64,000 nt of DNA from the NCBI GenBank assembly GCA_030645735.1, contig JAUSNP010000006.1, forward strand, positions 260,824-324,823, written 5' to 3'. The stretch is from Candidatus Moraniibacteriota bacterium (GTDB lineage: Bacteria > Patescibacteriota > Minisyncoccia > Moranbacterales > UBA2206). The translations under genes were made by a program, and so were the position numbers. Shown piece after piece: positions 5,132 to 62,714 of the stretch (positions are counted from its first letter, which is position 1; each line of letters starts with the position of its first letter). The notes under the pieces are model-generated. The model had not been told where the DNA came from. It ran no database searches and saw only the letters and a program-made list of their open reading frames with translations.

Positions 5132-5548
5132 GGATTTTCAAGGCAAATCTATAAGCCGGATTTTGTTGAAAGAAATCATTTATCTAGGCCAAACATTGCT
5201 GATTGGCTCTTGCAGTACCCGCCAATACGAAACACTATAAACTTCATCGAAACACTATCATGAAATTCACAATGCTTCGCATTGGCGTACGACCTTGCAT
5301 CTAGGTAAGGATTTAGCCGTTTCACTCCTCGACTTCACTCAGAGCAAGCCCTAAGTTTATTTCGAAGACTATTCCGCTTTTATACGGAATCTGCAATCCT
5401 TTCGAATTACAGCGTCTCTGCTCGCACCTCGTAGGTTACCCTAGACGGGTATTACCCGCTACCGATCCATTGCAAAGCAATGGTTGATGTCCGGACTTTC
5501 CTCCTCGACTTTGACGTCGAGGCGATTTCTCAATTTACCTTGAAAATT
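5132..5548 (-). ncRNA. rnpB: RNase P RNA, bacterial type
   Basis: Minus-strand reading contains the P4 5' strand GAGGAAAGTCCGGAC, the element GGCCTAGATAAATGATT (E. coli: GGCCUAGAUGAAUGACU), and the P4 3' strand ACAAAATCCGGCTTATAG. A P1 helix pairs tttcaaggtaaat with atttgccttgaaa at the two ends. Confidence 0.8.
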
Positions 5549-5639: not shown

Positions 5640-8249
5640 CTAAATCGCCTTCAAATTCTTTTTAAGCTCTTTCTGAATCTGCAATTTGTCCATATATTCG
5701 CCTATTCTAGTCTTTGTTGCCTCAAGAATCTCTTTCGGCGCTCCGGCTACAAAATTTTTGTTTTTGAGCATGCCTTCATTTTTGGCAATCAGATTTTCCA
5801 AATTCACAATCTCCTTGTCAATCGAGATGAGCTCTTTTTCCATATCAATTGATTTGGCAATGTTGAGTTGCAAAGCTCTTTTCCTTGTTGCCACCTGAAT
5901 CATTTTTGCTTTCACGCCTTTGCCGGTTTCAATTTTGACTCGCGCCAATCTTTCGATGATTTCTTTTTCTATTTTTTTCTTGCCAAAGCCCTCGATCAAA
6001 TTGACTGGGTCGATGTGATAGCTGGAACGAATGTTGCGAATCTTGGCAATCAATTCTTGCAAATCAGCAAAATCAATCTGCACTTTCGTATCGATACATT
6101 TTTTTGGATTCTTCGGCCACTGCGCCATCATCAGCATTTTACGACCATCAAACATTTGTTGATAAATTTCCTCAGTTACAAATGGTGTGAATGGATGCCA
6201 CAATTTCAAAATTTTATCTAAAACATAACCTAAAACCTTGGTGTTTTTTTCCAACTTGTGAATTTCCACATACCAATCTGCGAAACTGTCCCAAGTGAAT
6301 TTGCGCAAAGTATCTTGCGCCAAAGAAATGTTTTTGTCTTTCATAAACTCAGTCACGTTCCTTGTCGTTTCTTCGAGTTCGCACACAATCCAATTATCTG
6401 ACAAAGTTTTCAAATCTTTCTTGCTGATTTTTTCTACCAAGGCAAAGTTTTCATCTGCTTGGGTGCAATAACGGAAAATGTTCCACAGCTTGGTTACAAA
6501 ATTGCGGAAACCTTCAATTTTCTCTTCCGACAATCTTGAGTCCTGTCCTGGCGCAATGTCCATCACCAAACTCAAACGCAAAGCATCCGCGCCGAATTTA
6601 TTGATAATATCCATCGGGTCGATTCCATTGCCTTTTGATTTGGAAAATTTCTGCCCATCTTTATCACGCACTAGACCGGTGAAATACAAATTTTTGAAAG
6701 GTGTTTTGTCAGTGCGATAACTGCCCATCATCAACATGCGCGCTGCCCAGAAAAACAACAAGTCGCGCCCAGTAATCATGGCGTCAGTTGGATAGAAATT
6801 TTTTGCATCTTTGCCATTTGGATATCCCAGGGTTGAATATGGCCACTGACTGGAAGAAAACCAAGTGTCGAAAGTATTTTCATCTTGCACCCAGCCATCA
6901 CCTTTCGGTTTTTCCAATCCAACATAAATTTCTTGTTCCCCATTGACTTTTGACTTTCGACTTTCGACTTTCGACTTCTCTCGATACCAAACTGGGAATT
7001 GCGGACCCCACCAAATTTGTCGCGAGATGCACCAATCTTGCAAATTGGAAAACCACTGAATCAAAATTTTCTTGAAATTTTCTGGATAAATTTCCACCTT
7101 GCCAGACTTGATCAATTCCAAGGCTTGTTTCTTGAGAGAAATTTTCTCATCGTCAACTTTCACAAACCATTGATTGGAAATCAATGGTTCAATCACGGTT
7201 TTACATCTCTCGCAAACCGAAACATTGTTTGCCAAAGATTCTTCTTTTTCCAAAAATCCCAACGTCTGCAAATCAACCACAATTTTAGCGCGCGCTCCTA
7301 AAACATCAAATCCTTCATATTCTCCGCCATTGGCCGTGATTTTGGCCTTTTCATCAATCACAGAAATTTCTTCCAATTTGTGATCCTTGCCGATTTGCCA
7401 ATCCAATGGATCATGCGCTGGCGTGATTTTGACCGCGCCAGTTCCAAATTCCATATCGATGCGCCGATCAGCGATGACTGGAATTTCCCGATTCTGCAAT
7501 GGCAAAATTAGATTCTGTCCGATGAAACTCAAGAATCGCTTGTCCTTCGGATTGACGGCCACCGCCGTGTCACCCAGCATGGTTTCTGGACGCGTCGTGG
7601 CCACGGTCAAAAATTCCTTGGAATCTTTGACTGGATATTTAATATAATATAATTTTCCCGCTTGTTCTTTGTGCTCCACCTCCACATCAGCCAAAGCCGT
7701 GCCACAACGTGAACACCAATTGATGATGCGATGCCCTTTGTAGACTAAGCCGTCTTTATACATCTGCACAAAAGTTTCCAATGCAATTTTGAGGCCTGCT
7801 GGATCAAGAGTGAATTTTTCACGTGACCAATCTGCACTGATACCAATTTTCTTTTCTTGCGCGCGCATATACTGCGAACGATCCATACAAAAATCATAAC
7901 AAGCTTGATAGAATTTTTCCCGTCCCATCTCATGGCGGCTGATGCCCTGCTCGGCTTTGAGTTTTCGTTCAAACACCACTTGGGTTTGGATGCCAGCATG
8001 ATCCTTGCCTGGCAACAATAAAACCTTCTTACCTTGCATGCGCTCGAAACGTCCGAAGATATCCATCACGGTATAGCCACTAGCATGTCCCAGATGCAAT
8101 TCACCATTGGCATTGGGTGGTGGCAAAACATTGCAATATTTTTTAGTTGACTTGATATTGTCCGGGTTGAAAAAACTGCTCCCTTCCCAGAGTTTATATA
8201 TCGCGTCTTCGCGCTCCTTGAAATCAAATTGTTTAGAAATTTCTCGCAT
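5640..8249 (-). CDS. valS: Valine--tRNA ligase
   Basis: 869 aa. Class I HIGH (PPNANGELHLGHA) and KMSKS (KFSKSKGN) motifs, an editing domain, and a C-terminal coiled coil. It contains an in-frame 7-bp x5 tandem repeat at 6945-6979. Confidence 0.9.
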   Translation of the reverse strand: MREISKQFDFKEREDAIYKLWEGSSFFNPDNIKSTKKYCNVLPPPNANGELHLGHASGYTVMDIFGRFERMQGKKVLLLPGKDHAGIQTQVVFERKLKAEQGISRHEMGREKFYQACYDFCMDRSQYMRAQEKKIGISADWSREKFTLDPAGLKIALETFVQMYKDGLVYKGHRIINWCSRCGTALADVEVEHKEQAGKLYYIKYPVKDSKEFLTVATTRPETMLGDTAVAVNPKDKRFLSFIGQNLILPLQNREIPVIADRRIDMEFGTGAVKITPAHDPLDWQIGKDHKLEEISVIDEKAKITANGGEYEGFDVLGARAKIVVDLQTLGFLEKEESLANNVSVCERCKTVIEPLISNQWFVKVDDEKISLKKQALELIKSGKVEIYPENFKKILIQWFSNLQDWCISRQIWWGPQFPVWYREKSKVESRKSKVNGEQEIYVGLEKPKGDGWVQDENTFDTWFSSSQWPYSTLGYPNGKDAKNFYPTDAMITGRDLLFFWAARMLMMGSYRTDKTPFKNLYFTGLVRDKDGQKFSKSKGNGIDPMDIINKFGADALRLSLVMDIAPGQDSRLSEEKIEGFRNFVTKLWNIFRYCTQADENFALVEKISKKDLKTLSDNWIVCELEETTRNVTEFMKDKNISLAQDTLRKFTWDSFADWYVEIHKLEKNTKVLGYVLDKILKLWHPFTPFVTEEIYQQMFDGRKMLMMAQWPKNPKKCIDTKVQIDFADLQELIAKIRNIRSSYHIDPVNLIEGFGKKKIEKEIIERLARVKIETGKGVKAKMIQVATRKRALQLNIAKSIDMEKELISIDKEIVNLENLIAKNEGMLKNKNFVAGAPKEILEATKTRIGEYMDKLQIQKELKKNLKAI

Positions 8250-8255
8250 TATAAT

Positions 8256-9395
8256 TTATCTTAATTCCGCATTCAATTCCTTTTCAGTTTTTGTGCGGAT
8301 TTTTGCTTGGATCTCATTGATTTCTTCATTGGTCAAAGTTCTTTCAGATGAACGATAGGTTATGCGAAAGGTGTAGCTCTTTTTGTCCGCACCAAACTTT
8401 TCCTCATTCTCATATTCATCCAAAAGCTTCACTTCCTCAATTAGATTGTCCGCATAATCTCGAACGATTTCATAATAATTATTGAGGCTTATGTCCTTAT
8501 TAATGACAAATGAAATGTCTCTAGTAGTTGCGGGAAACTTGCTAACCTCTTTGAATTTACTGTTGATGTCTTTGAATTGACTTGTGATTCTTTCATCAGT
8601 CGACCAGATAATTCGAATATCCGGTATTTCCATTTTTATCATTGCCAATCTCTCTCCAAAACCAAAAGCCCAACCATTGTAGACTTCTGGATCTAGGCCA
8701 AAGTTTTTCAAAACAACCGGGCTAACTAGTCCAGCACCATTGACCTCCATCCAATCTCCGTTGAATTTGATATCCATCTCCAAACTCTCTACTGTGTATG
8801 GGAAATTGTCTTCCAAAAATTTATACTCAATGTCTGATCCAAAAATCCCCTTGGCCAAATCAATCTGAACATCTTTTAGATCCTGCTGAGTGACAATTTT
8901 TTTGTCTTTTTTGCAAATAAACAATCCATCAATTTGATGAAAAGCCGGAAAATGATGCCTGTCTATTTCATCTTTTCTAAAAACAATTCCTGGAGCCAAG
9001 GCCTTGATTTCACCTTCTTCTTCCAATTTTTTCAAAACCTCTTTGTCTTTCAAATAGAAAGACCAAAAAGCTGTCATCTGCGTTCTCAAGATATGCACAT
9101 CATCCAAATAATATGTGTCGGTTTCTCCTCGACTTGGATGATCCTTCGGAGCGTTCAAAAGATCAAAGCATTGCTCGACGGTTATGATTTTTGGAAATTC
9201 AACGATATCAAAGCCTTCAAATCTTGGTAAGTTTATTATTTGATCAAATAAAATTTTCACCGGTGAATGTTCTTTTTTTGTAAGGTCCGGCAAAGCCAAA
9301 AATCTTTTTATGCGCTCGGCTTTTATATCACTTCTTTTATTCAATTCTTCTATTAACTTTTTTTCATCATTGTCCTCAATAACAATCTTGCGCAT
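8256..9395 (-). CDS. pheS: Phenylalanine--tRNA ligase alpha-like catalytic subunit with a fused C-terminal FDX-ACB anticodon-binding domain (mitochondrial-type single-chain architecture)
   Basis: 379 aa. Class II motifs HPSRGETDTYYL, FRKDEIDRHHFPAFHQIDG and GWAFGFGERLAMI. The C-terminus FPATTRDISFVINKD...YTFRITYRSSERTLTNEEI matches the PheT C-terminal B8 (FDX-ACB) domain. Confidence 0.75.
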   Translation of the reverse strand: MRKIVIEDNDEKKLIEELNKRSDIKAERIKRFLALPDLTKKEHSPVKILFDQIINLPRFEGFDIVEFPKIITVEQCFDLLNAPKDHPSRGETDTYYLDDVHILRTQMTAFWSFYLKDKEVLKKLEEEGEIKALAPGIVFRKDEIDRHHFPAFHQIDGLFICKKDKKIVTQQDLKDVQIDLAKGIFGSDIEYKFLEDNFPYTVESLEMDIKFNGDWMEVNGAGLVSPVVLKNFGLDPEVYNGWAFGFGERLAMIKMEIPDIRIIWSTDERITSQFKDINSKFKEVSKFPATTRDISFVINKDISLNNYYEIVRDYADNLIEEVKLLDEYENEEKFGADKKSYTFRITYRSSERTLTNEEINEIQAKIRTKTEKELNAELR

Positions 9396-9405
9396 ATTTT
9401 TTTAT

Positions 9406-9876
9406 TTATTCTGATAAATTATTTATATAGTCTACAAATTTCATTCCGACTTCAGCCTTTTCATCCAAAACCATGATTCCACTGTGATCCGAGCCCAACC
9501 CAAGTTCATCCGCTGCGCAGAGCATTCCAAAAGATTTCACCCCGCGAATTTCGGCTTCTTTGATTTCAAGCCCATTGGACAATTTTGTTCCAACCGTTGC
9601 AACTGGCACAAGCTGACCAACTTGAATATTCGGCGCGCCACAGACAATTTGCAAAATTTCTCCTCCGATGTCTGTTTTTGTCACCTGCAACCTGTCAGCA
9701 TTAGGATGTTTTTCGATTTCCAAAATTCTACCCACCACCACGCCATCAAATTTCTGGGTCTGTTTTTCCAAGCCTTCAATTTCAGAAGAATCCACAGCCA
9801 AATCTTCCCCTTTTTCTTCTGGGGTTGATTTTGTTAGGCCTAAAATATTTTTTAACCAGTTGTAGTTATATTTCAT
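9406..9876 (-). CDS. Stand-alone PheT N-terminal tRNA-binding (B1, Myf/CsaA-like OB-fold) domain protein
   Basis: From Met10 of the listed ORF, 156 aa: MKYNYNWLKN..., VVVGRILEIEKHPNADRLQVTKTDIGGEILQIVCGAPNIQVGQLVPVA, GMLCAADELGL. It stops just after the B1 domain. Confidence 0.7.
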   Translation of the reverse strand: MKYNYNWLKNILGLTKSTPEEKGEDLAVDSSEIEGLEKQTQKFDGVVVGRILEIEKHPNADRLQVTKTDIGGEILQIVCGAPNIQVGQLVPVATVGTKLSNGLEIKEAEIRGVKSFGMLCAADELGLGSDHSGIMVLDEKAEVGMKFVDYINNLSE

Positions 9877-10169
9877 ACTTATTTTGCAAATTTTTTGCCT
9901 CATTCAAAGCAAAACATTCAATTTATAAAATTTCTTATTCTATTGCATTTCGATTCTTTTCCTCTTCTAATTCTACTTTCAAATGGGCAAAAAGTCAAAA
10001 CCAGCACAATAAAATAGGAAGGCCGTCAACACACTGGTCGACGGCCTAAAAAAGCAAAATCCTACATAATAAAGTTGTTCCTTTGTGCAACTTTATTCTA
10101 GCTCTGTTTTTCATTTTTCTGATACTTGGCAGTATCTTAAAATAATAACAAATTCCAAATAGATGAAAC

Positions 10170-10358
10170 CTAGTCACTTATCCCCTCCTCCCCATATTCA
10201 ACATAAATAACATGAACACCGCTTTCCTCAACTACCGAGTATCGAGTTAGCCCGCGTTTGATTGCATGCTCCTCAGCTTCATGCCTATCAAATGGAATTT
10301 TACGCCAAGCCACGGGATGTGGCTTTTCTAGTTCGCTTTTCATAACTAGCTCTGCCAC
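10170..10358 (-). CDS. Small hypothetical protein (about 62 aa), possibly DUF4258-like
   Basis: The listed ORF starts at TTG. A likelier start is the GTG at 10356-10358, 5 nt after GGAGGT. A rho-independent terminator hairpin (10021-10047) lies downstream. Confidence 0.35.
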   Translation of the reverse strand: MAELVMKSELEKPHPVAWRKIPFDRHEAEEHAIKRGLTRYSVVEESGVHVIYVEYGEEGISD

Positions 10359-10413
10359 GTCACACCTCCGTTTCAAAAATTTAAGTTTTTAAACAACCGA
10401 AGAAATATTCTAT

Positions 10414-11598
10414 CTAAAAAACAATTTTTGCAAAACCAAATTTTCCAACTTTCAAAACTGCGCCGTCATCAGATTTCGTCAAAACTTTCTGCCAGTCAGA
10501 TTCACGCGTGCCATTGATCTCCAATCCACCTTGTTCGATTTTTCGACGCGCCTCTCCATTACTCTTGGCCAAATCAGCCAATACTAAAAATTCAATCACC
10601 TTAATTTCTTCCCTATCCACCTTTACCTCCTTTACCTCCTCAGGTAGCTCCTTATTCGAAATTGTTTTCACAAAATATTCCTTGGCTTTTTCTGCCTCAA
10701 TTTCTCCATGATAAATCTTCACAATTTCTTGCGCCAAAACAATTTTAGCATCCCGCGGATTTTCCAGTTGCAAGAGTTTTTCGACTTCTTCCATTGGAAT
10801 TCTGGTACAATGGATTAGATATTCTTGCAGTAAAGAATCTGGGATGCTCATTATTTTTCCAAACATACTATTTGAGTCATCCAAAAGATTGATAGTGTTT
10901 CCCCAACTTGAACTCATCTTTCGACCATCTGTTCCAGAAATAATGTTGGTCATCAAAATGTCTTGTGGTTTTTGTCCAAATTTTTCTTGCAAAACTCTAC
11001 CAGCCAACAAATTGAATCGCTGGTCTTGTCCGCCCAATTCAACATCCGCTCGCAATTCCACACTGTCATAGCCTTGCATCAACGGATACAAAACTTCTCG
11101 CAAAGAAACTCGCTTGCCAGCGTCTAATCTTTTTTTGATATTATCTCTCGAAATAAATTCATGCAAAGAAAAACAATCAGCGTGCTCGCCAATTTCACGA
11201 TATCCCAATTTGTTCAACCAATCTGCATTATATACGACCTCAACTTTGCTCATATCCAAAAGCTTTCCGGCTTGCTCAGCATAGGCCTGCATATTTTTTT
11301 CTACCATTTCTTGAACCAACATTGGTCGCTCTGAGTCTTTGTCTGAAGTATCGCCAATCACCCCAGTAGCATTTCCCACCAAAAGAATGATGTGATGTCC
11401 CAATTCTTGCAGATCTTTCAATTTCAAAAGCAAAACCGCCCGGCCAATATGAATGTTTGGACTAGTCGGATCCATGCCAAACTTTATTCTCAGTTTTTCA
11501 CCGGAAAGTAGTTTTTTTCTTAAACTGTCTTTATTGATAGCCTCGGCAACGCCACGGCTCAAGATCTCATCTATTTGATTTTCCAAGTTTTTTTCCAT
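10414..11598 (-). CDS. tyrS: Tyrosine--tRNA ligase with C-terminal S4 domain
   Basis: HIGH-region GMDPTSPNIHIGRAV and the KMSSS motif. The listed ORF begins at a non-ATG codon; the first ATG is at 11598. Confidence 0.85.
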   Translation of the reverse strand: MEKNLENQIDEILSRGVAEAINKDSLRKKLLSGEKLRIKFGMDPTSPNIHIGRAVLLLKLKDLQELGHHIILLVGNATGVIGDTSDKDSERPMLVQEMVEKNMQAYAEQAGKLLDMSKVEVVYNADWLNKLGYREIGEHADCFSLHEFISRDNIKKRLDAGKRVSLREVLYPLMQGYDSVELRADVELGGQDQRFNLLAGRVLQEKFGQKPQDILMTNIISGTDGRKMSSSWGNTINLLDDSNSMFGKIMSIPDSLLQEYLIHCTRIPMEEVEKLLQLENPRDAKIVLAQEIVKIYHGEIEAEKAKEYFVKTISNKELPEEVKEVKVDREEIKVIEFLVLADLAKSNGEARRKIEQGGLEINGTRESDWQKVLTKSDDGAVLKVGKFGFAKIVF

Positions 11599-11646
11599 AT
11601 GTAAATAATACCAGCCTAAAGGCTTTCTTGCAACACTAATCAAAAT

Positions 11647-45837: not shown

Positions 45838-45969
45838 AATTCTTTATTATCTTTTTATAATTCAATTATATCACATCCTACGCCATATTTTTTTGTGCCT
45901 CACAAAAACATTTATCCACCTCACTTTCTTATACGCAAAAACGCTCACAATGAGCGTTTTATATATTAG

Positions 45970-46040
45970 CACGGGTGGAAGGAGTCGAACCCTCACCAAA
46001 GGTTTTGGAGACCTCCGTTCTACCGCTAAACTACACCCGC
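45970..46040 (-). tRNA. tRNA-Trp (anticodon CCA)
   Basis: Cloverleaf: acceptor GCGGGTG/CACCCGT, anticodon loop CTCCAAA, T-loop TTCGACT, discriminator G. Confidence 0.75.
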
Positions 46041-46167
46041 CCGCCTCATTTGCCAATGAAATGAAAAATACCTACTCTCCGATTTTCATTAAGCTATAAA
46101 AATCATATTCGTAAAAATAATCTCACTAGCAAATGTGGCGGGCACGCCCAAATGGACATACCAAAGA

Positions 46168-46332
46168 TTATTTCGCTTCTTTGTGCACTGTGTGAACCTT
46201 GCATTTCTTGCAATGTTTTTTCATTTCCAACTTTTCTTTCAACATCTTCTTGTTACGAGTTGTGAAATAGTTAGTTGATTTGCAGACTTCGCATTTCATC
46301 TTCGCTAGATTGTCGTTGCCTTTTTTTGCCAT
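46168..46332 (-). CDS. rpmG: 50S ribosomal protein L33
   Basis: MAKKGNDNLAKMKCEVCKSTNYFTTRNKK...KKHCKKCKVHTVHKEAK (54 aa from the ATG at 46332). The listed ORF is over-extended at its 5' end. Confidence 0.85.
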   Translation of the reverse strand: MAKKGNDNLAKMKCEVCKSTNYFTTRNKKMLKEKLEMKKHCKKCKVHTVHKEAK

Positions 46333-46428
46333 AATATTTTCGTGGAACGTGGAACGTGGAACGTAAATCATTGATAGGATATACGTTTCGCGTTATGCGT
46401 TTTGCGTTATATGATTTACAAATTATTA

Positions 46429-46501
46429 ATTTCGCTTGAGCCGTTGAGCAGAATCGAACTGCTGACCTCATCCCTACCAAGGATGTGCTCTACCAACTGA
46501 G
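46429..46501 (-). tRNA. tRNA-Thr (anticodon GGT)
   Basis: GCCGTTGTAGCTCAGTTGGTAGAGCACATCCTTGGTAGGGATGAGG...TTCGATTCTGCTCAACGGCT. Confidence 0.8.
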
Positions 46502-46626
46502 CTACAACGGCAACTTCATTACAATAACCAAATTCCAAGATACAAACATCAAACAAATTTCAAAATTCAACATGGATATTTTTTGGAATTTGTTATTTGT
46601 TTTTTTGGTTTTTGTCACGAAGTGAC

Positions 46627-46712
46627 TGGTGGGCAGAGAGGGAGTCGAACCCCCGTAGACCGAAGTCGACAGATTTACAGTCTGTTGTAATTGACCACTC
46701 TACCATCTGCCC
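46627..46712 (-). tRNA. tRNA-Tyr (anticodon GTA), long variable arm, CCA encoded
   Basis: GGGCAGATGGTAGAGTGGTCAATTACAACAGACTGTAAATCTGT...GGGGGTTCGACTCCCTCTCTGCCCACCA. Confidence 0.8.
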
Positions 46713-46728
46713 ATTTTCAACAACCCAG

Positions 46729-46800
46729 AGCCGCCTTTCGGATTCGAACCGAAAACCTACTGTTTACAAAACAGTTGCTCTACCGTTGAGCTAAGGCGGC
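46729..46800 (-). tRNA. tRNA-Thr (anticodon TGT)
   Basis: GCCGCCTTAGCTCAACGGTAGAGCAACTGTTTTGTAAACAGTAGGTTTTCGGTTCGAATCCGAAAGGCGGCT. Confidence 0.75.
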
Positions 46801-60491: not shown

Positions 60492-62714
60492 ATGACTAAA
60501 AGAAAATCTGAAAATAAAATAGTTGAAATTCAACCAGAATTTGAGAATATTCTAGTTTGCAACGACCGGCAAATGACTCCGTATGTTGAGATTCTCGTTC
60601 AAGAGCCAGAAAATATCAGCAATCAAAATCTAGGCACCCTCATCGGGGTTTTTGAGGTTACTGACACAACCGAAGATTCTTCCTATATCGTCAACTACCT
60701 AATTTCCATCATCAAGAAGGAATATTTTTCCAAGCCCAAGCGCGGACCGATTGAAAGTCTTGAATCAGCTCTGCACAAAGCCAATCTAGCTCTATCCAAT
60801 TTGGCTGAACACGAAAACATTGGCTGGCTCGGAAAATTAAATGTGCTAATTGCGGTTATTGAAAAAAATAGCTTGCACCTTTCTCAGGCTGGAAATGCTT
60901 GCGCCTTGCTTTTGCGCTCCAAAACTATCACAGATGTCAGTGAAGGGCTGGCGCCAGCCAAATCAGAACTAAATCCGATGAAAACTTTTGTCAGCGTGTC
61001 TAGTGGCCGACTTGAAAAAAATGACAAGCTGATTCTGACTACGGACAGCATTTTTGATATTTTCTCATTAGAGGAAATCAAAAAAAGCTCCTTGCGTTTC
61101 TCCGACAAAAATTTCGTCCAATTTCTGAAAACTGCCCTTGGCTCAGAACTGGAAAGAGCCGCTGTTTTGATTGCCGACCTCAAGGATCAACAAGAAATAG
61201 CCCAGCCAGAACCGCAAAAACAAAAACGCGACCTCAATGTTTTCAGCAAAGACGCTTTTGCAAAAACAAAAAAAGCAAAGACTGAACAAAATGCACAAAT
61301 TACGCAAGATTTGCAAAAAGAGATTCAGTATGAAAAAGCTGGCTTTGTTGATGAAAAAACTGGGCATATCTATATCAAAGATGATTTTCAAACAACCTTG
61401 GCGCAGGACGCTGGCCCAACTTACACTGAAAAAATTCTACAGAAATCTGCCAATCTGTCCTCTGATACGGCTAAAATGGCTAAGAACTTGGCAGTCAACA
61501 CTCTACGCAATATCCGCCTGCCCAAATTTTCCAACCTACAATCCAAGGCGCGCAAACTGCAACCAGATTATCAATCTATCATTGAAACCGTCCGGACACA
61601 GGCCAAGGCACGCGCTAAGACAGCTGGTTCTGCCTCCACCGTATTCATTGAAAAATCAACCGTTTTGGCAAAAGTTGTTTTTTCACAAAAAAATGGACGC
61701 CTTGCAATCTTTGTTTGCAAAAATATTTACCACAAAATCATTTCCCTTGTGCGTCTAGCTCTGCCAAGATTTGATAAAATACGAGATATTTTGCGTAAAA
61801 TGGATTATCAACAAAAATTATACGTGGCCTTGATTTTTGTGCTAATTTTTATCGTACCCCTAGTCGGCATCAATATAAAAAACAATCTTGATGCCAAAAG
61901 AGCCGCCCAAGTGGCCGTCGCCAACAAGCCCGCTCCTTTACCGCTCGAACAAGACAAAAATGTTTTGCGCATTGACACACCCATGTTAATTTATACTGGC
62001 AATGATATTCTAAAAACAATAAACTTGAATAACAAAATTTTTGTTGTTACCAGCTCTAATATAGTTGATTTAGAAAAAAATCAGTCATTTGCCATTCCAC
62101 AAGAATTCACTAACCCAGCCCAAGTGGCTGGCATGCAAGACTTGAATTTGATATTTTTGCTGAACAAAAACAAGCAAATCATGTCTTTCAGTCCAATTTC
62201 AACTGAATTCAAAAACAACAACCTGACTGTCCCAGTTGATGCCACCATAACTGGCATGGGAACTTATCTGACCTATATCTATCTACTGGATTCAAAGAAT
62301 AATCAAATCTATCGTTATCCACGAGCTGAGGGTGGTTTTGGTGAAAAAACTAACTGGCTCAAAGAAACACTCGACCTTTCCAATACGAACGGTTTAGCAA
62401 TGAATGAAAATATTTTCATCTCCAACAACACTGGAATTTTGAAATTGTTCCGTGGTCAAAAACAAGATTTTTCAATTGAAGAAACTGCCACACCAATCAG
62501 CATCAGCAAAATTGCCATCGGAGAACAAAGTGGCACAATCTTCATTCTTGATACACAAAATTCCCGCGTGATTCATCTGGATGGTGAAAACAAAATAGTG
62601 GCACAATATTATAACCCCAAAATAAATTCCGCTACTGACATTACTATTAGTGAAAATAATAATACTATCTACATTTCCAACAATGCCACTACTGAAGCTA
62701 TTGCGATAAACTAA
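60492..62714 (+). CDS. Large hypothetical protein: PP2C-like (probably catalytically degenerate) domain, one TM helix, C-terminal beta-propeller-like repeats
   Basis: N-terminal 230 aa with PPM-like motif positions (IGVFEVTD, SQAGNACALLLR, LILTTDSIFD, AAVLIADL) but non-canonical acidic residues. TM helix LYVALIFVLIFIVPLVGI. C-terminal repeats (IYRY, GTIFILD, NNTIYISNN). Confidence 0.45.
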   Translation: MTKRKSENKIVEIQPEFENILVCNDRQMTPYVEILVQEPENISNQNLGTLIGVFEVTDTTEDSSYIVNYLISIIKKEYFSKPKRGPIESLESALHKANLALSNLAEHENIGWLGKLNVLIAVIEKNSLHLSQAGNACALLLRSKTITDVSEGLAPAKSELNPMKTFVSVSSGRLEKNDKLILTTDSIFDIFSLEEIKKSSLRFSDKNFVQFLKTALGSELERAAVLIADLKDQQEIAQPEPQKQKRDLNVFSKDAFAKTKKAKTEQNAQITQDLQKEIQYEKAGFVDEKTGHIYIKDDFQTTLAQDAGPTYTEKILQKSANLSSDTAKMAKNLAVNTLRNIRLPKFSNLQSKARKLQPDYQSIIETVRTQAKARAKTAGSASTVFIEKSTVLAKVVFSQKNGRLAIFVCKNIYHKIISLVRLALPRFDKIRDILRKMDYQQKLYVALIFVLIFIVPLVGINIKNNLDAKRAAQVAVANKPAPLPLEQDKNVLRIDTPMLIYTGNDILKTINLNNKIFVVTSSNIVDLEKNQSFAIPQEFTNPAQVAGMQDLNLIFLLNKNKQIMSFSPISTEFKNNNLTVPVDATITGMGTYLTYIYLLDSKNNQIYRYPRAEGGFGEKTNWLKETLDLSNTNGLAMNENIFISNNTGILKLFRGQKQDFSIEETATPISISKIAIGEQSGTIFILDTQNSRVIHLDGENKIVAQYYNPKINSATDITISENNNTIYISNNATTEAIAIN

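Follow-up and report, generated by a model that had tools for sequence, protein, structure and literature searches.

A mitochondrial-type single-chain phenylalanyl-tRNA synthetase gene in the pheS-pheT slot of a Candidatus Moranbacteria genome

Phenylalanyl-tRNA synthetase (PheRS) is regarded as a heterotetramer conserved in all known prokaryotes, and the monomeric form, the only such case among class II enzymes, as unique to mitochondria (PMC3275996). The mitochondrial enzyme (human FARS2, yeast MSF1; PheRS-M, family TIGR00469, structures 3CMQ and 3TUP) joins a PheS-type module and a B8 or FDX-ACB domain in one chain, and has neither the alpha coiled-coil nor the B3/B4 editing module. We describe a 379-aa protein with the same features, encoded by a fused gene in a 64-kb stretch of DNA (positions 260,824 to 324,823 of contig JAUSNP010000006.1, the whole of which is called the window below) from a 329.6-kb contig of a metagenome-assembled genome (MAG) of Candidatus Moranbacteria, a member of the Patescibacteria or Candidate Phyla Radiation (CPR). 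The fused gene and a small upstream open reading frame (ORF) for a stand-alone N-terminal piece of PheT, here called B1B2, lie where related genomes carry pheS-pheT. The best explanation overall, which we consider likely, is that pheS-pheT was replaced in situ by an acquired single-chain PheRS together with a remnant of the pheT 5′ end.

The mitochondrial proteins are the best match to the window enzyme in both sequence and fold, the predicted structure takes the closed domain arrangement of 3CMQ, and the tree places both enzymes among the fused forms, across the split from canonical PheS. The window enzyme differs in being bacterial and cytoplasmic with no presequence, in missing an insertion of about 30 residues that breaks the match to FARS2 into two parts, in belonging to a separate CPR clade (100% bootstrap), in scoring just under the TIGR00469 cutoff, in the stand-alone PheT B2 protein encoded beside it and, within the window's subclade, in its FPYTVES motif and a deletion in motif 3. 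Canonical (alpha-beta)2 PheRS (TIGR00468 with TIGR00472; sister loci L072, L076 and L004) has a homologous core (PF01409), a B8 domain homologous to the FDX-ACB, a counterpart of the small ORF in PheT residues 1-150, and the same position between tyrS and valS. In contrast, the window system is without the alpha coiled-coil, B3/B4 (editing), B5 and B6/B7, carries B8 on the catalytic chain, has a core about 30% identical to the resident PheS, misses the pheS and pheT cutoffs, and has no full-length pheT adjoining. A third relative, SrmL (NF051887), has the same layout of PheS-like core and FDX-ACB in about 350 aa, but true SrmL proteins (e.g., P0305, 402 bits) group in a clade of their own with 100% bootstraps and have an altered active site, with HP[Y]T among the changes.

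A fused synthetase of mitochondrial type

The mitochondrial-type architecture of the 379-aa protein is supported by profile, sequence and structure comparisons. Profile searches agree with the initial annotation that a PheS-type core is joined to an FDX-ACB domain, with Pfam tRNA-synt_2d (PF01409) matching residues 38-274 at 173.7 bits and FDX-ACB (PF03147) residues 285-379 at 94.5 bits. The alpha N-terminal coiled-coil (PF02912), which canonical neighbours have, gave no Pfam match on this protein, and the NCBIfam pheS model (TIGR00468) reached 166.5 bits, below its cutoff of 237.45. A sequence search of the PDB placed human FARS2 at the top with 186 bits, compared with 136 bits for E. coli PheS. 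The AlphaFold2 model (predicted local distance difference test score, pLDDT, 90.7; predicted template modelling score 0.84) was aligned by Foldseek with closed-state human mitochondrial PheRS (5mgv, 3cmq) at template modelling (TM) scores of 0.79-0.80 and root-mean-square deviations of 2.5-2.9 Å over about 389 columns, whereas bacterial PheS alpha chains cover the core alone (TMq about 0.55). The resemblance to the single-chain mitochondrial enzyme proposed at the outset therefore extends over the whole chain of human FARS2 (TM 0.80). In the alignment, the motif-2 Arg140, the FHQ at residues 152-154, the FP[FY]T Phe-pocket motif and the motif-3 Arg249 are kept, and Ala243 aligns with A294 of the E. 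coli enzyme.

By analogy with the human mitochondrial enzyme, the 379-aa protein would activate Phe in its class II site, after which the FDX-ACB domain would swing from the closed to the open position and read the GAA anticodon of tRNAPhe, and the tRNA would then be charged. Because the B3/B4 module is missing, the protein would be unable to edit Tyr-tRNAPhe in cis. The small B2 protein would be co-transcribed with the synthetase and may raise its tRNA affinity in trans. It is likely that the 379-aa protein is the only PheRS of the cell, acting as a single chain and without cis-editing.

In-situ replacement of pheS-pheT between tyrS and valS

Read from its first ATG (9903), the small ORF spans positions 9406-9903 of the minus strand and encodes 165 aa. 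The ATG at 9876 (MKYNYNWLK...) is the likelier start, in agreement with the NCBI model P0121 and with PheT N-termini, and gives the 156-aa protein that the initial annotation had described. The NCBIfam model pheT_bact (TIGR00472) matches it at positions 1-155 of 798 with 176 bits (cutoff 402.65), and it is 64% identical to the N-terminus of canonical Moranbacterial PheT. It had been labelled a stand-alone PheT B1 domain, of which the assignment to the PheT N-terminus stands and the domain label does not, as the folded domain is B2. This is the tRNA_bind or EMAP-II-like OB domain, named B2 in the T. thermophilus nomenclature (PMC3275996) and matched here by PF01588 at 79.3 bits. In the AlphaFold2 model residues 1-32 are predicted to be disordered (pLDDT <50), and pLDDT exceeds 90 over the OB fold. 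The small ORF is an N-terminal piece of PheT comprising a B1 fragment and the B2 OB fold.

An OB fold of this kind is shared with several free-standing tRNA_bind proteins (YtpR, Trbp111/CsaA, the MetRS C-terminal domain, Arc1p/EMAP II and TapR). The nearest is YtpR, whose model (NF045760) gives 137 bits against a cutoff of 100 over profile positions 68-185 of 185, and Foldseek returns PheT N-termini and YtpR, the OB fold being 50-52% identical to the YtpR structures 3bu2 and 9a77_B. B1B2 differs from YtpR in having no YtpR N-terminal half and in beginning with the PheT-specific MKYNYNWLK; its position and N-terminal sequence show that it descends from pheT. With TapR, the TyrS-associated PheT N-terminal domain-related protein (NF045867), B1B2 shares its location near tyrS, but it scores 65.2 bits against a cutoff of 120; the CsaA/Trbp111 model gives 30 bits, short of its cutoff of 150. 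Among free-standing proteins, the nearest structure to the B2 protein is 9a77_B, which is YtpR of B. subtilis as modelled together with GatB by an integrative approach, a hint that OB proteins of the YtpR type work together with tRNA-dependent enzymes besides PheRS.

The strongest evidence for replacement is synteny. The window has the gene order g16225, MacB, MacB, g12743, g11694, tyrS, B1B2 and the fused gene, valS, and a sugar transferase; canonical loci L076 and L072 have identical flanking gene order, with flanks 53-78% identical to those of the window and pheS and pheT in the slot. Since the window shares its flanks with these canonical genomes and holds B1B2 and the fused gene in the slot itself, canonical pheS-pheT has been replaced in situ by this pair and the ancestral operon destroyed in the lineage. 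The same synteny identifies stand-alone B1B2 as the positional remnant of the pheT 5′ end. In the mechanism that we propose, an acquired single-chain PheRS would have displaced the operon between tyrS and valS, and the 5′ end of the old pheT would persist as a separate gene for the 156-aa OB-fold protein. The arrangement tyrS-B1B2-fused gene-valS is seen in many further genomes, including L086 and L088. On the minus strand of the window the order is tyrS, a 68-aa ORF, the small ORF, the fused gene and valS, with 10 nt between B1B2 and the fused gene; valS, said from the start to follow directly, begins 6 nt past the fused gene's stop.

With PheT of E. coli and of L072, the nearest relative with canonical genes, as queries, neither B3-B7 nor a second PheS was found in the 64-kb window, the two PheT sequences matching it only at residues 1-151 and from about residue 667/696 to the end, and PF03483-like (B3/B4 editing) sequence was found in neither ORF nor elsewhere in the window. 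The earlier statement that B3-B7 editing, B5 and catalytic-like PheT modules are not adjacent is thus confirmed over 64 kb; its extension to B2 fails, because B2 is present in the small ORF. No pheS or B3-B7 remnants were found in the slot, or in the gaps between tyrS and the fused gene of L028, L031, L032 and L010. Replacement of the slot itself makes a canonical pheT elsewhere unlikely. Ratios of non-synonymous to synonymous substitution (dN/dS) against close relatives, which are rough because dS is saturated, are 0.03-0.04 for the fused gene, 0.05 for valS and 0.10-0.18 for B1B2; the fused gene and B1B2 are both under strong purifying selection.

Table 1. Features of the locus and of the remainder of the window (positions in the window)
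Feature	Position	Strand	Description or basis
Single-chain mitochondrial-type PheRS gene, 379 aa	8256..9395	-	PheS-type class II core and C-terminal FDX-ACB
Catalytic core, residues 38-274	8574..9284	-	PF01409, motif alignment
FDX-ACB (PheT B8-like) anticodon-binding domain, residues 285-379	8259..8543	-	PF03147
Stand-alone PheT N-terminal remnant (B1B2), 156 aa	9406..9876	-	B1 fragment and B2 OB-fold tRNA_bind domain
tyrS, upstream edge of the ancestral pheS-pheT slot	10414..11643	-	Pfam, synteny with L072 and L076
valS, downstream edge of the slot	5640..8249	-	Pfam, synteny
Promoter-like site TTGACT-17-TAGAAT, 5′ of the B1B2-fused gene pair	9970..9998	-	Consensus match alone
Terminator-like hairpin between tyrS/68-aa ORF and the B1B2-fused gene pair	10020..10047	-	
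68-aa ORF between tyrS and B1B2	10170..10376	-	
RNase P RNA class A gene	5136..5541	-	Rfam RF00010, 123.5 bits
tRNA cluster	45969..46800	-	Trp-CCA, Thr-GGT, Tyr-GTA, Thr-TGT
740-aa ORF	60492..62714	+	

Upstream of the B1B2-fused gene pair, Rfam models detected neither a T-box nor any other leader. The 68-aa ORF has no Pfam match and no similarity to PheS, and a 266-bp spacer (9904-10169) that holds a strong hairpin separates it from B1B2. In L008 tyrS directly abuts B1B2, so that the 68-aa ORF and the spacer are an insertion confined to the window's lineage. The RNase P RNA gene lies just 3′ of valS, no tRNA-Phe gene is present within the 64-kb window, and the 740-aa ORF has no Pfam match at E <=1e-4. 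GC skew is negative in all 2-kb bins of the window (1-64000) and the long ORFs up to about 52 kb are nearly all on the minus strand, a pattern consistent with one replichore and strong gene-strand bias.

Origin and distribution of the fused gene

Sequence comparisons show the fused gene to be of foreign origin, and we take it to have been acquired horizontally. Its core is 29-31% identical to the resident PheS, and its FDX-ACB domain is 26-32% identical to the resident Moranbacterial PheT B8 as compared with 34-44% for mitochondrial-type FDX-ACB; overall, both halves are about 35-44% identical to mitochondrial-type proteins. The low identity of each half to its resident counterpart and the greater nearness of both to mitochondrial-type proteins argue against manufacture of the gene at the locus. 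A chimera of a foreign core and the resident B8 was also considered, and was rejected on the 26-32% identity of the FDX-ACB. More basal lineages have the fused gene elsewhere, for example upstream of gyrB, and without B1B2.

The phylogeny of the core is an unrooted neighbour-joining tree with 200 bootstraps and thin sampling. Canonical PheS splits from all fused forms in 100% of the bootstraps, and the fused side contains the CPR clade (100% support), FARS2-like proteins, a group of about 350 aa, and SrmL (100% support); the branching order among the CPR clade, mitochondrial PheRS and SrmL is not settled by this tree. One of the proteins of about 350 aa that exceed the pheS_mito cutoff comes from the alga Vitrella, and so the group cannot be counted as bacterial. 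A tentative reading, which we regard as somewhat doubtful, is that single-chain PheRS is an old bacterial invention, with a single ancestral fusion behind mitochondrial PheRS, SrmL and the Patescibacteria clade. In that case a bacterial donor would have passed the enzyme, already fused, to mitochondria, and the fused gene would still be spreading among CPR bacteria and displacing pheS-pheT. The one-sided 100% split is consistent with such an origin, as is the finding that both domains of the CPR proteins are nearer to mitochondrial-type proteins than to resident PheS and PheT. Given an unrooted and thinly sampled tree, transfer from eukaryotes to bacteria and independent fusions are possible alternatives.

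We did not rely on tyrS or valS to time the horizontal transfer of the fused gene, because their own histories are discordant. Between L006 and the window the fused gene is 93% identical, valS 74-77% and tyrS about 50%, and the identity of tyrS to that of the window is out of step with its neighbours in L006, L013, L016 and L024. This discordance suggests tyrS replacements among genomes with the fused gene, in line with the two types of TyrRS described in CPR (PMC5370408).

Each of the 120 best clusters matching the fused protein has both domains and a length of 345-398 aa; they come from Moranbacteria, Wolfebacteria and unclassified Patescibacteria (NCBI, JGI, ENA and Logan); NCBI annotates the fused and B1B2 proteins alike as hypothetical. 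The initial annotation had considered the architecture unusual for a bacterium. We found it in no paper, but it is not rare, being widespread in Patescibacteria metagenomes. Canonical pheS-pheT is common among other Moranbacteria. Many Moranbacteria-like contigs carry the ENA label 'uncultured Bdellovibrionales bacterium' (L009, L011, L013, L016, L020, L028, L050, L058, L074, L075, L078 and L082) and the canonical pheS-pheT locus of L080 bears the name 'Candidatus Bathyarchaeia archaeon'; wrong taxonomic labels or mis-binning are the probable cause.

How the two systems are distributed was surveyed in species representatives, with the fused protein joined to a canonical Moranbacterial PheS as the query and patterns drawn from both halves. 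All counts rest on the best 80 of 472 matches (22 fused-type and 58 canonical loci), and the patterns recover 109/120 (91%) of known Moranbacterial PheS for the canonical half and 57/120 for the fused half. Among the 79 assemblies represented, 57 had the canonical system only, 21 the fused system only and one had both, so that no canonical pheS was detected in 21 of the 22 fused-type representatives. The fused and canonical systems are almost mutually exclusive across genomes, though coexistence occurs. A comparison of same-size contigs, which has low power, found many common to the fused and B1B2 lists, implying adjacency, and none shared with the canonical PheS list.

Alternative explanations and implications

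Several observations weigh against replacement by a sole, single-chain PheRS. The absence of pheT and pheS is established for 64 kb of the 329.6-kb contig, and the Phe-charging role of the 379-aa protein is one that we infer from sequence and predicted structure. The protein scores 240 bits with the NCBIfam pheS_mito model, under the cutoff of 258.35; its nearest representative at 50% identity, P0241, clears that cutoff with 264.3 bits. Members of the window's subclade (at least 79% identity; L002, L003, L006-L016 and L022) have FPYT[VI]ES at residues ~198-204 (FPYTVES in the window protein itself) where FPFT[DEH]PS is otherwise nearly universal, and lack one residue of class II motif 3 (GFG-ERLA, residues ~241-250), whereas CPR fused proteins outside the subclade have the standard pocket and motif 3. 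In the survey of species representatives, a canonical PheS less than about 58% identical to the query would have been hidden, and B1B2 does not adjoin the fused gene in 9 of the 22 fused-type representatives and is shrunk to a 52-aa fragment in L029. Finally, contig JAKLFF010000001.1 (470,928 bp) of RA.bin150 carries a 338-aa pheS, a 796-aa pheT and a fused gene, all of them intact, with the two loci about 40 kb apart (L015, 229198-242343; L038, 189635-202651), and this fused gene nests among those of the replacement type; coexistence of both systems is therefore possible. The fused gene of RA.bin150 has NIF3-family, PLP-decarboxylase-like and radical-SAM/SPASM genes as neighbours, and GC content is 35% at the fused locus and 40% at the canonical pheS-pheT-valS locus. 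RA.bin150 could be a transitional genome, a genome in which the fused gene has another role, or a chimeric contig.

The alternative that survives best concerns the small ORF alone. B1B2 might be a decaying leftover of pheT without function as a protein, perhaps kept for the promoter or translation start of the fused gene. It has been lost in L010, L028, L031 and L032 as well as reduced in L029, its evolution is about fourfold faster than that of its neighbours, and its B1 piece is predicted to be disordered. B2 is, moreover, missing from many CPR PheRS beta subunits (PMC5370408); in line with that loss, B2 is dispensable in the canonical PheT of L083 (7025-9055) and L057 (7028-9025), which pass from residues 1-37 to residue 155 onward. 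Against decay, its dN/dS is far under 1, the ORF is intact in 13 of the 22 representatives and in L001 and L086-L088, and the alignment has 29 invariant columns within an OB fold that is confidently predicted and half identical to the YtpR tRNA-binding proteins. We consider a functionless leftover unlikely. Its absence beside the fused gene in several representatives and the fragment in L029 indicate that B1B2 is not an obligatory subunit. Trbp111, Arc1p and the C-terminal domain of MetRS act in trans to increase tRNA affinity, and by analogy B1B2 is probably a selected yet dispensable tRNA-binding accessory of the Trbp111/YtpR/Arc1p kind, although this is the weakest step in the proposed mechanism.

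A second alternative bears on the synthetase itself, and holds that the fused protein is an accessory, SrmL-like paralogue while a canonical PheRS encoded elsewhere does the housekeeping. Such a role would accommodate the intact pair of systems on one contig in RA.bin150 and the PLP-decarboxylase-like and radical-SAM/SPASM neighbours there, the derived active-site motifs of the window's subclade, and coverage of only part of the genome by the window, and the SrmL model does give the 379-aa protein 238.9 bits. That score, however, is short of the SrmL cutoff of 300, and true SrmL stands apart in the tree with full bootstrap support. The ancestral slot itself has been replaced, with no pheS or B3-B7 remnant; canonical pheS goes undetected in all but one of the fused-type representatives with patterns that are 91% sensitive; the dN/dS of the fused gene does not exceed that of valS; and a second pheT would imply a duplicated B1B2 in a genome of about 1 Mb. 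On this evidence the accessory role is improbable.

Still less probable, and in our view very unlikely, is a recent local rearrangement in which the pheS core moved behind B2 and was joined to B8 with deletion of B3-B7. B1B2 and the fused gene do fill the pheS-pheT slot exactly, and the order B1B2, core, B8 is that of a pheT with its middle exchanged for a catalytic core. The identities of the core and FDX-ACB to resident PheS and B8 contradict a local de novo fusion, as they are only 29-31% and 26-32%, although valS and tyrS of the sister genomes compared reach 72-78%; both halves are nearer to mitochondrial-type proteins, and more basal lineages have the fused gene in other contexts without B1B2. 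In a MAG one might suspect an artefact of assembly or gene calling, such as a chimeric contig or a pheT that is truncated or frameshifted, but its probability is negligible because both ORFs recur across independent assemblies, with the same boundaries in an independent 24.8-kb Logan contig and in dozens of MAGs and metagenome contigs (NCBI, ENA and JGI), and pheT B3-B7 fragments occur in no frame.

The fused proteins are already implicit in databases; a full-text search of the literature found no description of bacterial single-chain PheRS, SrmL or loss of pheT in Patescibacteria, which is not proof of absence. If replacement by a sole single-chain PheRS is correct, it would explain why pheS and pheT markers seem to be missing in such MAGs, an apparent absence that would depress estimates of their completeness, and it would make a compact 379-aa PheRS available for engineering. 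It predicts a free-living or episymbiotic bacterium without cis-editing of Tyr- or m-Tyr-tRNAPhe. Displacement of an essential synthetase would be represented by natural genomes from before (L072 and L076), after (the window) and with both systems present (RA.bin150), and bacterial relatives would make the origin of mitochondrial PheRS testable. A bacterial lineage with a mitochondrial-type PheRS would contradict the rule that the enzyme is a heterotetramer in all prokaryotes.

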